Positions 8,691 through 50,799 of a stretch of 64,000 nt of DNA are shown one piece after another. The translations under genes and the position numbers were made by a program. Origin of the DNA: Escherichia phage vB_EcoM_DalCa. Location: the sequence record NC_054908.1; one strand, written 5' to 3'. The notes beneath the pieces are model-generated. The model searched no databases and was not told the origin of the DNA. It saw nothing but the letters and a program-made list of their open reading frames with translations. Position 1 is the stretch's first letter, and each line of letters opens with the position of its first letter.

Positions 8691-8716
8691 AAGGGACCTT
8701 TCGGTCCCTTTTTATT
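8691..8716 (+). terminator. Rho-independent terminator after gene 24
   Basis: AAGGGACC-tttc-GGTCCCTT followed by TTTT; overlaps the end of the rnlB continuation on the other strand. Confidence 0.7.
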
Positions 8717-22494: not shown

Positions 22495-22498
22495 CAAT

Positions 22499-22528
22499 GG
22501 GGACCTTTCGGTCCCCATATTTTTATTT
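22499..22528 (+). terminator. Rho-independent terminator after gene 54
   Basis: GGGGACC-tttc-GGTCCCC followed by ATATTTTTATTT. Confidence 0.7.
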
Positions 22529-22813
22529 ACGGAATGAAATAAAAGCAGAAACTGAAGCAACTAAACTATCTTCAATATAAACTTCAATTTTTACCGGAGC
22601 TTCTGACTCAAATTTACCTGTTACTACACCCTGAAAAATACTTTCAGTCTGTTCTGGCTTTGAAAAATTTTCAGAAGGAAAAATTCCAAACTTTTTATCG
22701 GTTCCAAAAATTTTAATAAATTCATCATAAACTGCTTCATTGAAAGCGTTATCAGCGGGAATAACGCCCTCAACTACAAGTTCTTGACCTAAAAAGCGCA
22801 AAGAAGATTTCAT
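22523..22813 (-). CDS. Hypothetical protein downstream of the Alt pair
   Basis: 96 aa ORF with its own GTTTACA-17-TATAGT promoter-like element and SD. Confidence 0.55.
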   Translation of the reverse strand: MKSSLRFLGQELVVEGVIPADNAFNEAVYDEFIKIFGTDKKFGIFPSENFSKPEQTESIFQGVVTGKFESEAPVKIEVYIEDSLVASVSAFISFRK

Positions 22814-22844
22814 TTTGTGTTCCTCATGTTATGTAAGTAAGACT

Positions 22845-22873
22845 ACTATAACACAACATGATGGACTTGTAAA
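22845..22873 (-). promoter_or_regulatory. Early sigma-70-type promoter (GTTTACA-17-TATAGT) upstream of the 96 aa ORF
   Basis: Near-identical about 45 bp element also upstream of alc. Confidence 0.5.
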
Positions 22874-24931
22874 CTACATTTTGAACTTTTTAGACATTCC
22901 GTTAATGTTAACCAAAGAAGCTAAGATTTGAGAAACTTCATTTTCCTCTTCTTTTGATTCTTCTACAAGGAATTGATTAAATCCAGCCATTGGACGAACT
23001 TCACCAGTTTCCATTAGATGGTCTCCATCATATACTGATTCTTCTAATTGTTCAGAAGGAGGAACGATTGTACCTTCGATTAGATACTTGTTATAAGCAG
23101 TTTCTTTCATAAAGTACGTACTTACTTTATTAATCTTCAGTAAAATTCCACGTGGTAGAATAACTTCAGCTTCTGATGGAAATCCTGATAAATGACCCGG
23201 AACGATAACTTTGATTCGCTCAGCTCCTTTAATTACCATACCCACGCTAGTTTCAGCATCTTCATTAGCATATGTAGAATGACTACCCATATGCATCAAA
23301 TCTTCTGCATCAACAGAACCTTCTCCTTCGCCAGAAAATACTGCACCGGAATCATCTAGAGCCATATAGTTTTTACCATGCTCACCGAAGATATTTGGTT
23401 TAAGTGATGTCGATACGAAGTTCTTGAAATAGAACATTTTATTTTCAATATTGTGACGCAAAGTTTTAAAGGTAACTTCTTGTCCACGGTAAAGTGTAGT
23501 TCCTGGAGGAAGAACTGAACCTTTAGCGAATGCAGAATCCAGCGTCTCAATATGTTTAATAGCTCGTTCCATATATTCTTCACGGGTAGAATCTGGTTTA
23601 CCCAAAAGGAACGAGTTCATTTCAACATATGAATCTGCACAATAATCTTCAATTACGTCAGATTCAGCCTGAGTTAATCCTTTTGGAGTTACTTCAGTAC
23701 TTGCATATTCATATGCCTGAGCGGCAGATTCATTAATCAATTTATAAATGCCATTCATGACAAATTGAATAATAGCTGTCTTTTCATCTGGCGTAGCTTT
23801 AGAACCTTTAACTAAATCATTGACAATTTTCTTAATAACATCAAAACTATTAGAAATATTAATATCAGCAAGATCGCTTAAAATTTTATCAGTTTTATAA
23901 TCAAAGAATTCTTTATTCTTTAAATATTCTTGAGAACCTTGATATGTTATATCGCTCTGCAGCTTGATAGATGGATCGCGTAAACGTGCATGGGCCAATG
24001 CAATATGATTTCGGAAGTTTTCTAGTTCATAATCGTTAGATTTAAAACGAGAAGCACTTCTCATACCACCGATAGCTCCTTTGCTAAAGTTTGAACCAAT
24101 CTGAATAACGCCAGAGTTCATCGGACCTTCTGCTTTATATACCGGAACTTTAGATTCAAACTCTTGATATTTCTTGGCAGCAAAGCTATCACCCTGAAGT
24201 GAAGCATCAACAGTAGAATATTGAGCTTGTGCTGCTAATCGACGACTTATTTTAGTTTTCTGAATAACAGCTTGGTCCGTGCGCTTATCATTTTCTAAAG
24301 CAATAGAAGCAGCAACAGCGACAGCTTTAGGAACAGCATTTCCTGTTTTAACGTCTACATAAACATCACCGACCTTTGATTCAACTTTTGTGAATAACTC
24401 AGTTGAAATAGGAGGTACACCTGGAATGTCTTCTAAATTGGCATTTTTACGGTAAACCATAATATATGCATATTTCTTATCATAGTCCCAGATTTCCTTT
24501 AAAAGAACATATCGACCTGCTCCTTTAGTACGTACTAAACGGTCAGCAATAACTTGCATTTGACGAGCTGCGCCATTTGTTTTACTTTTTAGTACGCGGA
24601 ATAGGCATGCGTCGATTTTATACTGTTTCATTGTTTGAAGAGCAGTATCAAAAACGGCATTAATGACACCAATTGGATTTCCACCCAAGTTTCTAAGTTT
24701 AACCAGTGATAGTTTCTCATTAACACCTATCATTACGATATGCATCATTTTATCGCCTGGCTTAACGTTTTTATTCGTATCACCACCAGAGGTGTATGTA
24801 CAAAATCTAAATCCAGGAAGCACGCTTTCTTCGCCGGCTTGAATAGCAAAAATTTGTGGTATTTTATGCTTAGGATTTAAGTTAACAACCGGCGCCGAAG
24901 CGCCGTCAAATAATTCTGTAATAAGTTCCAT
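22874..24931 (-). CDS. Alt-like mono-ADP-ribosyltransferase paralogue (685 aa)
   Basis: N-terminus MELITELFD... near-identical to the neighbouring Alt; R-S-E motifs (TLYRGQ, FVSTSL, EAEVILPRG). Confidence 0.8.
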   Translation of the reverse strand: MELITELFDGASAPVVNLNPKHKIPQIFAIQAGEESVLPGFRFCTYTSGGDTNKNVKPGDKMMHIVMIGVNEKLSLVKLRNLGGNPIGVINAVFDTALQTMKQYKIDACLFRVLKSKTNGAARQMQVIADRLVRTKGAGRYVLLKEIWDYDKKYAYIMVYRKNANLEDIPGVPPISTELFTKVESKVGDVYVDVKTGNAVPKAVAVAASIALENDKRTDQAVIQKTKISRRLAAQAQYSTVDASLQGDSFAAKKYQEFESKVPVYKAEGPMNSGVIQIGSNFSKGAIGGMRSASRFKSNDYELENFRNHIALAHARLRDPSIKLQSDITYQGSQEYLKNKEFFDYKTDKILSDLADINISNSFDVIKKIVNDLVKGSKATPDEKTAIIQFVMNGIYKLINESAAQAYEYASTEVTPKGLTQAESDVIEDYCADSYVEMNSFLLGKPDSTREEYMERAIKHIETLDSAFAKGSVLPPGTTLYRGQEVTFKTLRHNIENKMFYFKNFVSTSLKPNIFGEHGKNYMALDDSGAVFSGEGEGSVDAEDLMHMGSHSTYANEDAETSVGMVIKGAERIKVIVPGHLSGFPSEAEVILPRGILLKINKVSTYFMKETAYNKYLIEGTIVPPSEQLEESVYDGDHLMETGEVRPMAGFNQFLVEESKEEENEVSQILASLVNINGMSKKFKM

Positions 24932-24934
24932 GAT

Positions 24935-26992
24935 TTATCCTTGAACGAACTTGTAAGGCATGTTTGCAATATCTATACAAGACGCAATAATTCCAAGAGA
25001 TGATTCTACTTTCTGTTTAACATTTGATGAAACAAATGATGCAAAGTCAACTCTGTCTTCTACTTCAATATCACCTGTCATTGCAACCAATTCACCAGTT
25101 TCCATTAAATGGTCTCCGTCATAGATTACCGATTCGGTGAGCTCTTCCGTGGTCATAACTTCAGCTTGAATAAGCTTGTTGTTAGTTTTAACTGTTCCAT
25201 CATTGTAAGATGCATCAGTTATTTTATTAACTTTGACCATTAATCCACGTGGCAAAATAACTTCCATTTCATTTGAAGGCGCTAAACTTCCACCGGGTAA
25301 AACAACATTGACTTTATCAGCCCCAGTAATAACCCATCCAATTCCGACTAAATTATCGCTAGAATTAACAAGCCCTTCATCATTTTTATCGATAGAAATG
25401 TTTAGACGCTTTTCATCTGGTAAAACACCAACAGCTGAATCAGTCATCCAAGTACCAAAAATGTTTGGATATAATGATGTTGATACAAAATTTCTAAAAT
25501 AAAAAACTCGATTTTTTACCAATGCTTCATATATTGAAGGTAACATTCGCTGTGAACGATATAAAGTAATACCTTTTGGCAATCGATCACCATTTTTAAA
25601 GGCTGAATCTAAATTATCAATAGCTTTTTCTATGTCAGATGCTGTCAAAATACTTGTACGCTCATCTGGATTATATAATCCCAAAAGAGCATTATTTATG
25701 TCTACATATCCTGAACCTACGTATTCACGAATTCCGCGTTTTTGTGCTGGTGTGTATTTAGATGAATCTTTATTTTCGACTATAGGATGTAATGACCATC
25801 CAGCTGTAAGAGCATATCCACGTAATTCTCTTCGAATAATCTTTGTTTTTATTGCATTCCAAGAATTTTGTACTAACTCATTTGCAGCATCTTGGTTTAA
25901 ATGCGAATGTTTGTTAATATTTCTTTCAAACCAAGCACCTTTATATTTTTCTAAAGTATCATCGACGATAGAAGCAATAGTTTCTAAAGTTTTTATTGAA
26001 GTAATAGATTCTTTTCGTAATTTTTCTAAAGCTTTATTTTTTATTTCTGCATTAATAATGGATTCTTTATCTTCAGGAATTATAGAAGCTTCTCTGAATG
26101 CCATCCCAGCTGTAACACTGCTAAGAGCATTCTCTAGTGCAAATCCTGAAGTAGAAATTACCGTTAATTCATTAGAATCAGAAATTAAAGGCGCGTCCGC
26201 TGGTTTATTTAATTCTGCCGCTGAAGCCTCAAATTTTTGAAACATCGGTGTTTCAAATCTAGAAGATTCCAATGACTGACTTTGTGCAATTGCTCTACGG
26301 GAAATTTTAACTTTAACGATTACAGCTTGGTCAGAACGTTTATCATTTTCTTGTGCAATAGATGCTGCAATTGCCTCATTTTTGGTTACTTGAGCTCCGG
26401 TATCTTTATTGATATAAACATCACCGACCTTCGATTCAACTTTAGTAAAGAGCTCGGTACTAATTTCCGGAACTCCTGGAATGTCTTCTAGTGATACATT
26501 TTTGCGATGTATAAGAATATATGCATACTTTTTATCATAATCCCAGAGTTCCTTAAGAAGGACGTATCTGCCACCTGAACGACTACGGATAAGTCTATCA
26601 GCAATAACTTGAATTTGTCGAGCTTGACCAGCGGTTTTAGACTTAAGAATACGAAGCATACAAGCATCAATTTTATACTGACGCATTGTTTGCATTGCAA
26701 CAGTAAAAACTGAATTGATATAATTAATTGGGCTTGGACCAAGACCTTTTAATTTAGCAATTGAACCTTTAGCAGTTAATGTAAAAGGAACAATATGCAT
26801 CATTTTATCGCCCATTTTTAAATCGCGATTAGTATCACCTCCAGATGTATAGGTACATAAACGAAAGCCTGGTTGTTCAATTGCATCATCAACATGAACT
26901 GAAAAAATTTGCGGTATTTTCTTCTTTGGATTTAAGTTTGTAATCGGAAGAGTAGTATCTTCGTCAAATAATTCTGTAATAAGTTCCATCAT
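24935..26992 (-). CDS. alt: Alt ADP-ribosyltransferase (685 aa)
   Basis: N-terminal packaging-type sequence MMELITELFDEDTT...; R-S-E motifs (TLYRSQ, FVSTSL, EMEVILPRG); adjacent to gene 30. Confidence 0.8.
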   Translation of the reverse strand: MMELITELFDEDTTLPITNLNPKKKIPQIFSVHVDDAIEQPGFRLCTYTSGGDTNRDLKMGDKMMHIVPFTLTAKGSIAKLKGLGPSPINYINSVFTVAMQTMRQYKIDACMLRILKSKTAGQARQIQVIADRLIRSRSGGRYVLLKELWDYDKKYAYILIHRKNVSLEDIPGVPEISTELFTKVESKVGDVYINKDTGAQVTKNEAIAASIAQENDKRSDQAVIVKVKISRRAIAQSQSLESSRFETPMFQKFEASAAELNKPADAPLISDSNELTVISTSGFALENALSSVTAGMAFREASIIPEDKESIINAEIKNKALEKLRKESITSIKTLETIASIVDDTLEKYKGAWFERNINKHSHLNQDAANELVQNSWNAIKTKIIRRELRGYALTAGWSLHPIVENKDSSKYTPAQKRGIREYVGSGYVDINNALLGLYNPDERTSILTASDIEKAIDNLDSAFKNGDRLPKGITLYRSQRMLPSIYEALVKNRVFYFRNFVSTSLYPNIFGTWMTDSAVGVLPDEKRLNISIDKNDEGLVNSSDNLVGIGWVITGADKVNVVLPGGSLAPSNEMEVILPRGLMVKVNKITDASYNDGTVKTNNKLIQAEVMTTEELTESVIYDGDHLMETGELVAMTGDIEVEDRVDFASFVSSNVKQKVESSLGIIASCIDIANMPYKFVQG

Positions 26993-27027
26993 AGCCTCTC
27001 TAGTGTTTATTCTATTTATAAAATTAA

Positions 27028-27045
27028 AGGCCCGAAGGCCTTTAG
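27028..27045. terminator. Hairpin between alt and the 62 aa ORF (AAAGGCC-cgaa-GGCCTTT)
   Basis: Perfect 7 bp stem with tetraloop; function not established. Confidence 0.4.
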
Positions 27046-31387: not shown

Positions 31388-31416
31388 ATAATATCATATC
31401 CTGTACCAAAGTAAAC
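31388..31416 (-). promoter_or_regulatory. Early promoter-like element (GTTTACT ... ATATTATA) bracketed by an 8 bp inverted repeat
   Basis: GGTACAGG / CCTGTACC flank the -10 region upstream of the 125 aa ORF. Confidence 0.4.
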
Positions 31417-31418
31417 AA

Positions 31419-31751
31419 TTATTTTACTAATTTCCAATGCTTCATGTCAAGTTTGCCAACTTTTTTCATCTTCTCAATTAAGCGTTCGGCACGCTGGCGA
31501 GCTGTAACATAATACCATTCACCCAATTCATTTTGTTCAATTTTTCCAACGATTACTGTATTCAATTCATAAATCCAACCAGTAAAGAAATTATGAACTT
31601 GAATTGTAAAGGTGAAATCTGTTCCCATACCTTCTGTTGTTTCTACTTCAACAATATCACCTTCAACTGCCATTAAGAACCACATAGTTTCATCATATTT
31701 ACCATTGAAGCATTTAGTTTTAACTGCAGCGTTCAGATTAATCGTTTTCAT
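31419..31751 (-). CDS. Hypothetical protein (30.x block)
   Basis: 110 aa ORF; GTTTACA promoter-like element and SD upstream. Confidence 0.6.
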   Translation of the reverse strand: MKTINLNAAVKTKCFNGKYDETMWFLMAVEGDIVEVETTEGMGTDFTFTIQVHNFFTGWIYELNTVIVGKIEQNELGEWYYVTARQRAERLIEKMKKVGKLDMKHWKLVK

Positions 31752-31778: not shown

Positions 31779-31809
31779 ATACTATCACAAAGGAACCATA
31801 CTGTAAACA
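31779..31809 (-). promoter_or_regulatory. Early promoter-like element (GTTTACA ... ATAGTAT) upstream of the 110 aa ORF
   Basis: Same architecture as the other GTTTACA elements. Confidence 0.4.
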
Positions 31810-31861
31810 ACTTTGTGCAATCTTTGGAAAATAAAAAAGGACTCCCGAAGGAGTCCTCAAC

Positions 31862-35315: not shown

Positions 35316-35345
35316 ATAATATCACAACTCTACCGTAAAGTAAAC
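35316..35345 (-). promoter_or_regulatory. Early promoter-like element (GTTTACT ... ATATTATA) upstream of the 175 aa ORF
   Basis: Same architecture as the other GTTTACA elements. Confidence 0.4.
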
Positions 35346-37743: not shown

Positions 37744-38093
37744 TTAGAAAGGTCCTGGATGTCTTCTGCGAACTTGTTGAAGGAGTTGTTGATTTGTTTT
37801 TCAACCAATCCTGGCTTATGAGCCACCACATCCGCCTTCTTTGCGTCTTTGCGCAGCTTTTCATTTTCACGCTCAATAGCAGCAATCGCCTCACGATTTT
37901 TATTATTCATCGCATCAATATAATTATACTGAATTCGCAAATTATTTAATGCTAAGGCGTTTTCATTGGCCGTTTTTGTAATTTCTACAACAGACGTTTC
38001 TAATCTTTCTACCTTATTTTTTAAAATAATAGATGTTCCGCCAAATGCTATTACAAGTAATAGCAATCCAGCTGTAAAATTACTTACATGCAT
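37740..38093 (-). CDS. Inner-membrane spanin (i-spanin)
   Basis: 117 aa; N-terminal transmembrane segment then coiled-coil-like region; directly upstream of the lipoprotein. Confidence 0.7.
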   Translation of the reverse strand: MHVSNFTAGLLLLVIAFGGTSIILKNKVERLETSVVEITKTANENALALNNLRIQYNYIDAMNNKNREAIAAIERENEKLRKDAKKADVVAHKPGLVEKQINNSFNKFAEDIQDLSK

Positions 38094-38590
38094 AAAGTTT
38101 TAATAACCTCTATAATATCGTCTTGAGAAAGACCGTTAATTAAAATATGATGTTCAGCTGGAGATTTAGAAATTTTAAAGCATGCCGCAACATCTTCTGC
38201 CATATCCGATGCGCTACGATTTGGATTACTAATTCCAAGACGATGTTTTCCCGTCAAAGGATTAACGATGATGTAGCATTTGCAATTATTGATATGAACA
38301 TTAGGTTGAGTCTGATTAATAAACACTTCACAATCATATTTCGCAAGCTGATTTTCTAAAAAGACTTTCATCTCCTCAACCGCATCAGGAAGCATATCAC
38401 GGGCTTGCTCAAGACGACGATTTCGATATTCTTTAATGGTCGTTTTCCGCTTGACTTGCTTAGCTAAATCTTTCTTAAGATCGGTGATATATCCAACTCG
38501 ACGATTTCCTTTAAATACAGAAATCCCATCTGTAGTATCACCGTATGCTTCAACGACCATTTCAGTAGTAATAAGCTGTAAATCCATCAT
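38084..38590 (-). CDS. alc: Alc, inhibitor of host transcription
   Basis: 168 aa; position between rnlA and the spanin pair as in T4; GTTTACA-17-TATAGT promoter-like element upstream. Confidence 0.7.
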   Translation of the reverse strand: MMDLQLITTEMVVEAYGDTTDGISVFKGNRRVGYITDLKKDLAKQVKRKTTIKEYRNRRLEQARDMLPDAVEEMKVFLENQLAKYDCEVFINQTQPNVHINNCKCYIIVNPLTGKHRLGISNPNRSASDMAEDVAACFKISKSPAEHHILINGLSQDDIIEVIKTLCM

Positions 38591-38618
38591 AAAGTCCTCA
38601 TGTTATGTCAGTAAGTCT

Positions 38619-38647
38619 ACTATAACACAACACGAGGGGTTTGTAAA
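38619..38647 (-). promoter_or_regulatory. Early sigma-70-type promoter (GTTTACA-17-TATAGT) for alc
   Basis: Shares CCTCATGTTATGT.AGTAAG.CTACTATAACACAACA with the element at 22845. Confidence 0.5.
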
Positions 38648-38651
38648 CAGC

Positions 38652-40239
<1,588 letters not shown>

Positions 40240-46726: not shown

Positions 46727-46785
46727 TTTCTTTTCTCCATTAGTTTTGATAGGGTAATAGTATCACACTACTACCCTTCTGTAAA

Positions 46786-47151
46786 CTACTTTTTGAAAGT
46801 TTTTCGCAAAAGTTCAATGATTTCATCTACATTGTTTTCGTCAACAATGCAGTGAATTTTTGTTACGCCAGAAACTTTGTCTTTGACTTCATCTTCTTCA
46901 GAAGTCGGTTCTTTATACTCACGAAAACAATGAAATTCGTCTTCACAAACGTTAAAGTAAAAATGCTTTCCATTTGCGCATTCAATGTGTTTTATTACTC
47001 TAAATCCATCAACAAAGAAAGCTTCTTTAACTTCAAACCATCCGCCATTTTCTTGAATAATTTTAACTATTGCTGAATTAGAACGTGGGCGATAATTAAT
47101 AAATGTATCAATAAGTCTTGGAACAAGTTCATACTTTTTACCGATATACAT
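46786..47151 (-). CDS. Hypothetical protein (frd.x block)
   Basis: 121 aa ORF. Confidence 0.6.
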   Translation of the reverse strand: MYIGKKYELVPRLIDTFINYRPRSNSAIVKIIQENGGWFEVKEAFFVDGFRVIKHIECANGKHFYFNVCEDEFHCFREYKEPTSEEDEVKDKVSGVTKIHCIVDENNVDEIIELLRKTFKK

Positions 47152-47423: not shown

Positions 47424-47520
47424 ATTATTTTCCTCTTTAATCATCAGCAGTATTGCCGATAGTTGTATAGTACCATGGAAGGACAAGGATGTAAACCGTT
47501 TTGTGAAAAAATTTTTGAAA

Positions 47521-47545
47521 TAAAAAGGGGACCTCTAGGGTCCCC
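47521..47545 (-). terminator. Rho-independent terminator after gene 32
   Basis: GGGGACC-ctag-AGGTCCCC followed by TTTTTATTT on the minus strand. Confidence 0.7.
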
Positions 47546-49819: not shown

Positions 49820-50737
49820 TCAAAATTCATTAATGCTATTAGTTAATTTAGAAAGACCCGCTTTTACAAAATATGAATAAATTTTGCCACGCGGTGGTAA
49901 TTTATATGAATTATAGTAATTCACAATGTTTGAAGCAATATTATCAGGAATATAATCAAAATCAATTAGAACTAAATTTTCTTTATAACGATTATATTCA
50001 GATTCTGTGAGAAGCACCTTAGCTTGTTCACGGTCATTAGCAATAGCTTCAACGATTGAAGTTTTCATTGAAGGAGTTCGTTCACCTTCAACTTTGGTAA
50101 ACCAAAAGTCAGATCGTACTTTAACTGAAGCAACGTTATCCTTTTTGTCACCTTTAAGGATTTTAGTCATACAGTCAATTTCAGCAGAACCGCTTTTAAT
50201 TTTAACCCATTTCTTATGCATCGGTGACCATTGCTTAACATTTGGGTATTTGTGAAGCTGTGTAAAGTCACCATCCGACGAAATGATTAAAATCTTATGT
50301 CCTTCTAAAGAGAACTTTTTAACAAGAACAGCAATATGGTCATCTGCTTCATACTTATCAATATCCATAACAATGTATGGCATATAAGCTTTCAATTCAT
50401 CTATAACTTTATGACTGGATTCAAAATAACCTTCCCAGTCCCAAGTAGATTCTTCTCGTGCTTTTCCACGGTTTTTCTTATAATAATAAGCGAAATCACG
50501 ACGCCAGTATCCAGATTTCGCGTTATCAATACACAGTACAATTTTAGTGTATCCAAGCGTTTTTGCTTTTTTGACATTAAACTTAATTGAGTTCAATATC
50601 AAATGACGAACCATTGATAAATTAATTTTTTCTTTATCTGGGAAGTTTACCAGAGCAGTTGAAAGAGCAATTTGACTAAAGTCAATAAAGCAAATTCCTT
50701 CTTTGTAATCTTCATCCAGCATCATTTCTAAATCCAT
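49820..50737 (-). CDS. rnh: RNase H (5'-3' exonuclease / flap endonuclease)
   Basis: About 305 aa from the ATG at 50737; position before gene 34. Confidence 0.85.
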   Translation of the reverse strand: MDLEMMLDEDYKEGICFIDFSQIALSTALVNFPDKEKINLSMVRHLILNSIKFNVKKAKTLGYTKIVLCIDNAKSGYWRRDFAYYYKKNRGKAREESTWDWEGYFESSHKVIDELKAYMPYIVMDIDKYEADDHIAVLVKKFSLEGHKILIISSDGDFTQLHKYPNVKQWSPMHKKWVKIKSGSAEIDCMTKILKGDKKDNVASVKVRSDFWFTKVEGERTPSMKTSIVEAIANDREQAKVLLTESEYNRYKENLVLIDFDYIPDNIASNIVNYYNSYKLPPRGKIYSYFVKAGLSKLTNSINEF

Positions 50738-50799
50738 ATGAACCTCGTTCAATTAGTGAGATTTCTATTATATACTATCTAAATCTTAAAGTAAACAGG

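Follow-up and report, generated by a model that had tools for sequence, protein, structure and literature searches.

In phage T4, the genes e, soc, 49 and I-TevI (and mobE of Aeh1 as well) sequester the Shine-Dalgarno (SD) sequence or the AUG within the long RNA, and an internal promoter gives a translatable RNA from which the structure's 5' strand is missing; T4 relatives are predicted to have leaders of a similar kind (Uzan and Miller 2010). A second described element, the promoter-early stem-loop (PeSL), combines an early promoter, a stem-loop and an SD/ATG in an AT-rich stretch, is repeated in the genome and is exchanged by recombination (Arbiol 2010; Comeau 2014). The stem-loop in RB49 and phi1 often lies in the -35/-10 interval or over the -10, and the PeSLs of PST/T4 have the promoter TTTACW-N17-TAYWAT with stem-loops drawn upstream of it (Comeau 2014). 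PeSL stem-loops, often G/C-rich, have been interpreted as terminators or attenuators and are many per genome, clustered in hyperplastic regions. The early promoters of T4 (Pe) follow the consensus GTTTAC(N14)gtggTAttaT with an A-rich UP region; GTTTAC stands at -36 to -31, a GT-rich stretch lies 5' of the -10 (Nolan 2006) and ‘additional regions of consensus’ are recorded (Hinton 2010). We analyzed a 64,000-nucleotide stretch of Escherichia phage vB_EcoM_DalCa (NC_054908.1; hereafter the window), whose minus strand carries two near-identical copies of a 54-nt promoter element, one before alc and one before a 96-aa open reading frame (ORF), alt.-3. We propose, with a probability of roughly 0.6, that the element is a composite cassette of an early promoter and an SD-masking hairpin, that translation would proceed only from transcripts of the cassette's own promoter, and that the two copies are related by descent. 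We infer the transcription start, the read-through RNA and the translational effect.

Copy A, from the -35 through the SD, occupies 22821-22874 and reads from 22874 to 22821 as GTTTACAAGTCCATCATGTTGTGTTATAGTAGTCTTACTTACATAACATGAGGA; copy B occupies 38595-38648 and reads from 38648 to 38595 as GTTTACAAACCCCTCGTGTTGTGTTATAGTAGACTTACTGACATAACATGAGGA. The two align with 48 of 54 positions identical, and the identity ends sharply at both borders, where the preceding gene stops on the upstream side and just past GAGGA on the downstream side. Copy A sits between the gene of a 685-aa Alt-like ADP-ribosyltransferase (22874-24931) and the alt.-3 ORF (DUF5498; ATG at 22811-22813), and the G of the TAG stop of the Alt-like gene is also the G of GTTTAC. 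Copy B sits between rnlA (RNA ligase 1; 38652-39812) and alc (38084-38590), which has ATG codons at 38588-38590 and 38585-38587. A repeated, near-identical element before the 96-aa ORF and alc had been claimed by a sequence-only reading of this DNA, and the claim stands: when up to three mismatches were allowed, a degenerate 54-mer matched these two sites only in the window and none in 100 dinucleotide shuffles. An independent repeat search found the same pair as its family D5 (54 nt, 89%, spacing 15,774).

Each copy has the minus-strand order that the sequence-only reading had described, namely GTTTACA, 17 nt, TATAGT, an SD (as GAGGA) and an ATG. The -35 GTTTACA of copy A lies at 22868-22874 (TTTACA at 22873-22868) and its -10 TATAGT at 22845-22850, preceded by TGT as in an extended -10; the span first noted, 22845-22873, corresponds exactly to these two hexamers. 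The predicted start (+1) is near A22838, 7 nt downstream of the -10. In copy B the promoter scan placed GTTTACA at 38642-38648, and TATAGT with its TG is at 38619-38624, with a predicted +1 near A38612. Both copies thus read TTTACA, 17 nt and TATAGT with TG before the -10, and match the sigma-70 consensus at 10 of 12 positions. They also agree with the early promoters of T4: GTTTAC (22874-22869 and 38648-38643) matches the -36 to -31 element, GTGT-TATAGT is correctly spaced, and the -10 agrees with TATAAT at five of six positions, the relatives having TATAAT or TACAGT there in some cases. Around -40 to -44 copy A reads AAAAT and copy B ACTAA, with A/T runs further upstream. The homologous alc site in a Tequatrovirus record (OL960580.1) is annotated ‘similar to phage T4 early promoter GTTTAC(N14)gtggTAttaT’. 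The pattern GTTTAC-N18-TAnnnT has eight matches in the window, all on the minus (early-gene) strand, compared to 1.4 expected for both strands together. Generic sigma-70 scans did not discriminate in such AT-rich DNA, as they gave 53 and 59 sites where shuffles gave 61 and 51. The assignment of both copies as T4 early promoters, made from their motifs and spacing, is well founded.

The sequence-only reading had gone further and attributed the conservation beyond the hexamers to the extended early-promoter consensus; the promoter match held, and the explanation of the additional identity did not. That identity is not accounted for by the early-promoter consensus because the published consensus leaves the N14 spacer and the transcribed leader unspecified, and these are the places where the copies agree, at 10 of 14 spacer and 22 of 24 leader positions in the window and at 14 of 14 and 23 of 24 in T4. 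Among the eight promoters of the window, all share GTTTACA, GTG(T) before the -10 and TAnnnT (column consensus GTTTACA...tTgTGaTAttATA...TA.c.A.A.aA), and in ungapped comparison any two of them agree at 21-39 of the 54 positions, apart from copies A and B, which agree at 48. The shared motifs, together with the GT-rich stretch (Nolan 2006) and the additional consensus regions (Hinton 2010), speak for the view that these are simply two strong early promoters whose common sequence is an extended consensus for RNA polymerase (UP, -35, TGn, -10 and initial transcribed region). The free N14 and the gap between 21-39 and 48 matching positions (53 in T4) speak against it, as does the behavior of N14 at alc described below. 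The extra identity reflects instead the hairpin shared by spacer and leader, plus the common descent of the copies.

The sense RNA of both copies folds into a hairpin whose 5' arm is the -35/-10 spacer and whose 3' arm is the leader including the SD, with GAGG paired to CCTC. The 5' arm of copy A, UCC-A-UCAUGUUGUGU, lies at 22851-22865 within the spacer and holds the anti-SD, and its 3' arm ACAUAACAUGAGGA spans 22821-22834 with the SD GAGG at 22822-22825. The corresponding arms of copy B are CCUCGUGUUGUGUU (38624-38637, in the spacer, its last base being the first base of the -10) and GACAUAACAUGAGG (38596-38609, SD GAGG at 38596-38599). A small inner stem takes in part of the -10 (AGUA) and nucleotides near the predicted +1, and the 3' arm starts at about +2 to +4 relative to the predicted +1. 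The minimum free energy was -18.6 kcal/mol for copy A (z -2.95) and -22.8 kcal/mol for copy B (z -4.35), and the T4 copies folded at -23.0 and -24.7 kcal/mol, so that z over all four copies ranged from -2.95 to -4.92; none of 200 shuffles folded as well as any of the four. The transcript from the cassette's own promoter would lack the 5' arm, since this arm lies in the -35/-10 interval. In the partition function, the probability that the SD is unpaired was 0.001 (alc) and 0.005 (alt.-3) with 100 nt of upstream RNA included, compared to 0.53 (alc) and 0.20 (alt.-3) for the own-promoter transcript. Rfam gave no match at gathering threshold in the whole window and only sub-threshold matches to generic miRNA-precursor hairpins at the alc copy. 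A RegB target was also considered, and dropped by inspection, as the SD GAGGA has no GGAG motif.

We compared the rnlA-alc spacers of other Tevenvirinae genera and of 42 IMG/VR loci found with an Alc alignment (single-protein queries gave five loci each). The spacer is about 60 nt throughout, with the rnlA stop 0-4 nt ahead of GTTTAC, and Gelderland-, Karam-, Jiaoda- and Dhakavirus and further IMG/VR lineages keep GTTTACA, an anti-SD arm, the -10 and a leader arm with the SD. The arms themselves differ between lineages, for example TCTCCATTTGGTT/AACCAAATGGAGA, TCCTCATCAG/CTGATGAGGA and CCTCTCGTTTTTG/CAAAAACGAGAGG. The hairpin is kept in 25 of 32 distinct alc promoter-leader sequences, the anti-SD being CCTC, CTCC or CCCC at 2-5 nt past GTTTACA, and from the anti-SD/SD a contiguous stem of 8-15 bp extends inward, its inner sequence varying by lineage. 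From 25 alc upstream regions in a plain MAFFT alignment, RNAalifold derived no consensus structure because the loops vary in length and leave the 3' halves out of register; a swap test and an SD-anchored alignment of the arms were used in its place. When each spacer was paired with its own leader the mean duplex energy was -14.8 kcal/mol, compared to -6.9 kcal/mol for combinations across clusters, and none of 20,000 permutations was as low. The SD-anchored alignment (13 nt per arm, an artificial A8 linker, 19 distinct rows) had 88.3% of its cells paired, compared to 65.5 +/- 2.1% in column shuffles (0 of 500 reaching it) and 36-54% with slid partners; 10 of 13 pairs change on both sides, and the four pairs next to the SD anchor are paired in 19 of 19 rows with 2-4 pair types each. 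Among the 21 Tequatrovirus copies, likewise, the majority of substitutions in the stem keep the pairing, for instance G16A (GU to AU, recurrent and at both loci), T44C (GU to GC), C12T and C15T (CG to UG) and G40A; the one disrupting substitution was seen once. At the comparative level these data support selection on the pairing, which has been kept at alc by compensatory change. They also bear on the two plain promoters considered above: across genera the alc N14 changes freely yet in step with the leader, unlike a polymerase contact, and we regard that explanation as very improbable.

Several observations weigh against the proposed cassette, or narrow it. The anti-SD/SD match served as the anchor of the covariation alignment, in which the anchor pairs pair by choice; nine sequences that lack an exact anchor are not part of it, and two of these nine still fold the hairpin, with a single wobble or mismatch. 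In some alc lineages the hairpin is of another kind: it encloses only the -10 and stops just before the SD in L041/L058 and L048, and it is short and wholly within the -35/-10 spacer in Mosigvirus (L017/L047) and in L060/L062. The SD of the own-promoter transcript of copy A is only 20% unpaired in the model. In a survey of 125 genes from four genera, the median probability of an unpaired SD was 0.39 for promoter-proximal early genes and 0.41 for the others (p = 0.2), with strong masking in a few genes only, and these medians do not support SD masking by the spacer as a general design of T4-type early promoters. Across lineages, the sense strand was more stable than the antisense strand in just 9 of 23 cases (Wilcoxon p = 0.87); a sense-strand bias of 7-9 kcal/mol was found in Tequatrovirus only, and strand asymmetry is evidence for a sense-strand RNA in that genus alone. 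A role at the mRNA level (the strand, and RNA as opposed to DNA) rests on the constant involvement of the SD and not on strand thermodynamics. Finally, we know of no biological reason to bar later synthesis of Alc or Alt.-3. Masking of the SD at alc thus appears from the sampled lineages to be the commonest state; it is not universal and is not the sole selected form. By the folding models, SD masking is gene-specific, to be expected at alc in most lineages, at alt.-3 in Tequatrovirus, at a 30.8-like ORF described below and perhaps at rnh.

The distribution of the copies suggests how they arose. The window belongs to Tequatrovirus and is 97-99.9% identical to many T4-like coliphages, vB_EcoM_C2-3 matching best; T4 (AF158101) has the element at the same two sites, before alt.-3 and alc, with 53 of 54 positions identical. 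When the alc copy of T4 (67 nt) was used as a blastn query, it found 995 places in 498 records, and all 59 full-length records among the matches listed held two copies, the sole single-copy row being a 13-kb partial record. Among the genera compared, the alc-type cassette occurs at alt.-3 in Tequatrovirus only. The alt.-3 genes of Dhaka-, Gapriver-, Mosig- and Karamvirus and of one further lineage have a GTTTACA promoter with a short in-spacer hairpin and a free SD (L019:656-715, L020:640-698, L021:708-739, L022:6219-6279 and L074-L088 at about 330-400), and the short hairpin at the Mosigvirus alc promoter is of this same form. The in-spacer stems covary (CCACA/TGTGG, GCAC/GTGC, ACACA/TGTGT, TCCAC/GTGGA) around a conserved loop, A[AT]GGA[AT]; such a hairpin can form only in read-through RNA or in single-stranded DNA. 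On the most economical account of the sequences, alt.-3 would have received the 54-nt cassette from alc in the ancestor of Tequatrovirus. Outgroups, which have the other form at alt.-3, suggest this direction; similarity of the leaders does not decide it. The alc-type form, ancestral at alc, would have replaced the other alt.-3 promoter through recombination or gene conversion limited to 54 nt.

Exchange between the two loci is also indicated outside Tequatrovirus. In the Dhakavirus contig IMGVR_UViG_2706795356_000001, a stretch of 32 nt, ACCTTACACAAACATGAGGAGAACATTATGAA, is identical in the leaders of alc (L046, about 646-705) and alt.-3 (L075, about 330-400) and forms the 3' end of the alc cassette. 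This cassette of L046 is chimeric, with a 5' half of the Dhakavirus alc type, a 3' half of the alt.-3 type and the hairpin kept. We read this chimera, from its two halves, as a second and independent exchange between the alc and alt.-3 loci. Recombination between copies is accordingly visible in both genera, as a cassette common to both loci in Tequatrovirus and as a chimera in Dhakavirus. Concerted evolution, or ongoing homogenization of the copies, was rejected on the differences between copies within one genome, which number up to six (the window, EcNP1). A neutral duplication, meaning a recent gene conversion of one promoter region with no significance beyond the promoter, would fit the sharp borders of identity, the 53 of 54 matches in T4 and the occurrence of exchange at least twice. 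The copying, however, is older than the radiation that produced the 498 Tequatrovirus records sampled, and the copies have since diverged independently (by up to six differences within one genome). The 3' arm with the SD (positions 41-54) varies only at T44C, where pairing is kept, most changes in the 5' arm keep pairing as well, and the alc hairpin is held by compensatory change in many other lineages. We find a neutral origin of this kind hardly credible.

The movement of the cassette between two loci, the Dhakavirus chimera and the variable region beside copy A are likewise what one would expect of a PeSL, in which the stem-loop would mainly attenuate or terminate transcription from upstream, the cassette would serve mainly as a recombination site for gene shuffling and the pairing of the SD would be incidental. 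The element fits the definition of a PeSL, and PeSLs have been reported for PST/T4. An intrinsic-terminator scan, however, gave no call at either hairpin, and neither has a U-tract, the 3' flank in most lineages being the A-rich spacer between SD and ATG; the reading of the hairpins as intrinsic terminators was rejected on these grounds. Of the 32 alc sequences, 25 have the SD in the 3' arm, which neither a terminator nor recombination would need. In PST/T4 the stem-loops are placed upstream of the promoter rather than across it (Comeau 2014), and there are only two copies, 15.8 kb apart with essential genes flanking them, so that a crossover would be lethal. A PeSL in this sense is unlikely to be the explanation.

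In the composite cassette that we favor, the -35/-10 spacer, otherwise unconstrained, would encode the 5' arm of the hairpin, and the leader with the SD would be the 3' arm. RNA from the cassette's own promoter, starting about 7 nt after TATAGT, would carry the 3' arm only and expose a free SD, and alc or alt.-3 would be translated immediately after infection. RNA arriving from upstream would carry both arms and close a hairpin of about 20 kcal/mol over the SD. This upstream RNA would be a long prereplicative transcript through rnlA in the case of alc and a late alt transcript in the case of alt.-3, and translation of either gene would be confined, in essence, to the time when its own early promoter is firing.

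Candidate sources for such upstream RNA are present at both loci. Just upstream of the first alt gene, a T4 late-promoter consensus, TATAAATA, lies on the minus strand at 27013-27020, directly after a terminator hairpin at 27025-27044 (TAAAGGCCTTCGGGCCTTTA, minus strand) that immediately precedes it and the alt start. No minus-strand terminator was called between this late promoter and 22518, where a bidirectional terminator-like hairpin (22497-22518, both strands) lies between gene 54 (plus strand) and alt.-3 (minus strand). The alt RNA should be late and run through alt.-3, since the late-promoter consensus at 27013-27020 fits late synthesis and no terminator is called before 22518. This promoter, as placed by its consensus, is likely to be the source of late alt read-through into alt.-3. 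In the window as a whole TATAAATA occurs 18 times, where 8 +/- 3 would be expected, and most of these sites are on the plus strand, within the half that holds the structural genes. Alt, a protein of the phage head, enters with the injected DNA (Hinton 2010). At alc, prereplicative transcripts through nrd, denA and rnlA would make up the long RNA, and no more than weak terminator-like sites were called from the promoters at 46786/47496 down to alc.

The same region yielded some further observations. The terminator and TATAAATA at 27013-27044 have the appearance of a compact switch, set between the early region of gene 30 and the alt genes, which are late, and the terminator stem-loop GGGACCTTTCGGTCCC occurs twice, at 22497-22518 and 8693-8708 (repeat family D9). 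Two intact alt paralogues stand in tandem at 22874-26992 (minus strand), their similarity marked by repeat families D8 and D12; where the second alt would stand, T4 has only the remnants alt.-1 and alt.-2, and MX01 (Dhakavirus) has three alt genes. At the alc locus, Gaprivervirus VR25 and VR20 (L015:289-604, L021:14909-15228, L033/L034) have an additional ORF of 77 aa inserted between rnlA and alc. A terminator-like hairpin, AAAAAGGGGTGTACAAGCCCCTTCTTTCT, stands before it, and their alc starts about 10-13 nt after this ORF, without a GTTTAC promoter.

The position of the upstream stop codon raises another possibility, translational coupling, in which the hairpin would mask the SD but ribosomes ending at that stop would melt the base of the stem, and alc and alt.-3 on read-through RNA would not be silenced, their translation following that of rnlA and alt. 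The stop lies 0-4 nt before GTTTAC and 8-15 nt before the anti-SD, and in most GTTTAC lineages it abuts or overlaps the -35, either as a TAG sharing its G (copy A and many alc loci) or as a TAA with 2-4 nt following. A terminating ribosome covers about 10 nt beyond the stop, which would reach the first pairs of the stem. In Tequatrovirus alc, however, the anti-SD begins 14 nt after the stop and the stem has 14-20 bp, so that it would mostly stay closed, and coupling gives no role to a promoter whose own transcripts lack the 5' arm. Computation does not separate coupling from the composite cassette; we judge coupling to be quite improbable.

We also examined the other early promoters of the window. 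The weaker GTTTAC elements of the sequence-only reading proved to be real, at 31416, 31808, 35345 and 61380, and three more were found at 46786, 47496 and 50796. The promoter at 31779-31808 (minus strand), which precedes a 30.8-like 110-aa ORF (31419-31751), has a spacer complementary to its own SD, with arms TCCTTTG/CAAAGGA; the probability of an unpaired SD was 0.005 in read-through RNA compared to 0.89 in its own transcript. The spacer of the rnh promoter (50767-50796, minus strand; rnh at 49820-50737) is similarly complementary to the SD, and the values were 0.036 and 0.61, respectively. A gene of the 30.7/30.8 region in Karamvirus has the same spacer-SD complementarity with other arms, CTCCGTTGT/ACAACGGAG. 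Of a different layout are the minus-strand promoters at 46757-46786, 35316-35345 and 31388-31416, where a hairpin directly after the -35 encloses or includes the -10 and leaves the SD free (arms AGGGTAGTAG/CTATTACCCT, GGTAGAGTT/AGCTCTACC and GGTACAGG.../...CCTGTACC, respectively); these resemble the RB49-type PeSL. Strong intrinsic-terminator hairpins lie directly upstream of two promoters on the minus strand, at 47527-47545 before 47467-47496 and at 31837-31858 before 31779-31808, and these terminator and promoter pairs (47467-47545 and 31779-31858) match the PST/T4 layout of PeSLs (Comeau 2014).

Taken together, the comparisons suggest a wider proposal, which we hold tentatively and at somewhat less than even odds: an ancient gate at alc would restrict translation to own-promoter transcripts and would behave as a portable module, copied to alt.-3 and in part exchanged again in Dhakavirus, with similar gates at the 30.8-like ORF and rnh. 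If so, complementarity between spacer and SD at alc has outlasted many turnovers of sequence across Tevenvirinae, and the gate at alt.-3 would silence an early gene within a late alt transcript, a mirror image of gene e. The host transcription inhibitor gene alc and a few other early genes would be tied to their own promoters by RNA structure as well, and synthesis from them would end when the early promoters are shut off, despite continued read-through, contributing to the shut-off of early proteins. Reviews, including Hinton (2010), describe the mechanism of this shut-off as incompletely understood. The copying of a promoter together with a translational gate, as a unit, between unrelated genes would support the cassette view of T4-type genome evolution. 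There is also a caution for annotation, in that similarity of phage promoters beyond the hexamers can stem from RNA structure and not from polymerase contacts. Our literature search found no description of a hairpin at alc or alt.-3, and as it left the older T4 literature largely uncovered a prior description is possible; neither alc nor alt is named in the texts of Arbiol (2010) or Comeau (2014).

The cassettes share with the early promoters of T4 the GTTTAC, the spacing, GTGT with TATAGT, the place directly before an early gene and the minus-strand orientation; they differ in that most of the similarity between copies A and B is carried by N14 and the leader, which the consensus omits. With PeSLs they have in common a promoter, an overlapping stem-loop and an SD/ATG in intergenic space. 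They differ from PeSLs in having, at the level of sequence, no terminator features, in a 3' arm that is the SD, and in a number of exactly two per complete genome rather than many. As to location, copy A borders a variable region (an alt paralogue as opposed to the T4 remnants) and copy B lies between the conserved rnlA and alc. The likeness to e, soc, 49 and I-TevI lies in the pairing of the SD with an upstream segment and in an internal promoter whose transcripts, given the predicted start, lack the 5' arm. In those genes, however, the internal promoter is late or middle and silencing affects early transcripts, whereas the cassette has an early promoter of the sigma-70 type, with the 5' arm located in the promoter's own spacer, and silencing would affect later or longer transcripts; here, too, one cassette occurs twice, with its effect predicted from sequence. 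The principle of masking is classical in T4, and on this analysis an early promoter that uses its own spacer as an arm of the hairpin appears to be the difference.

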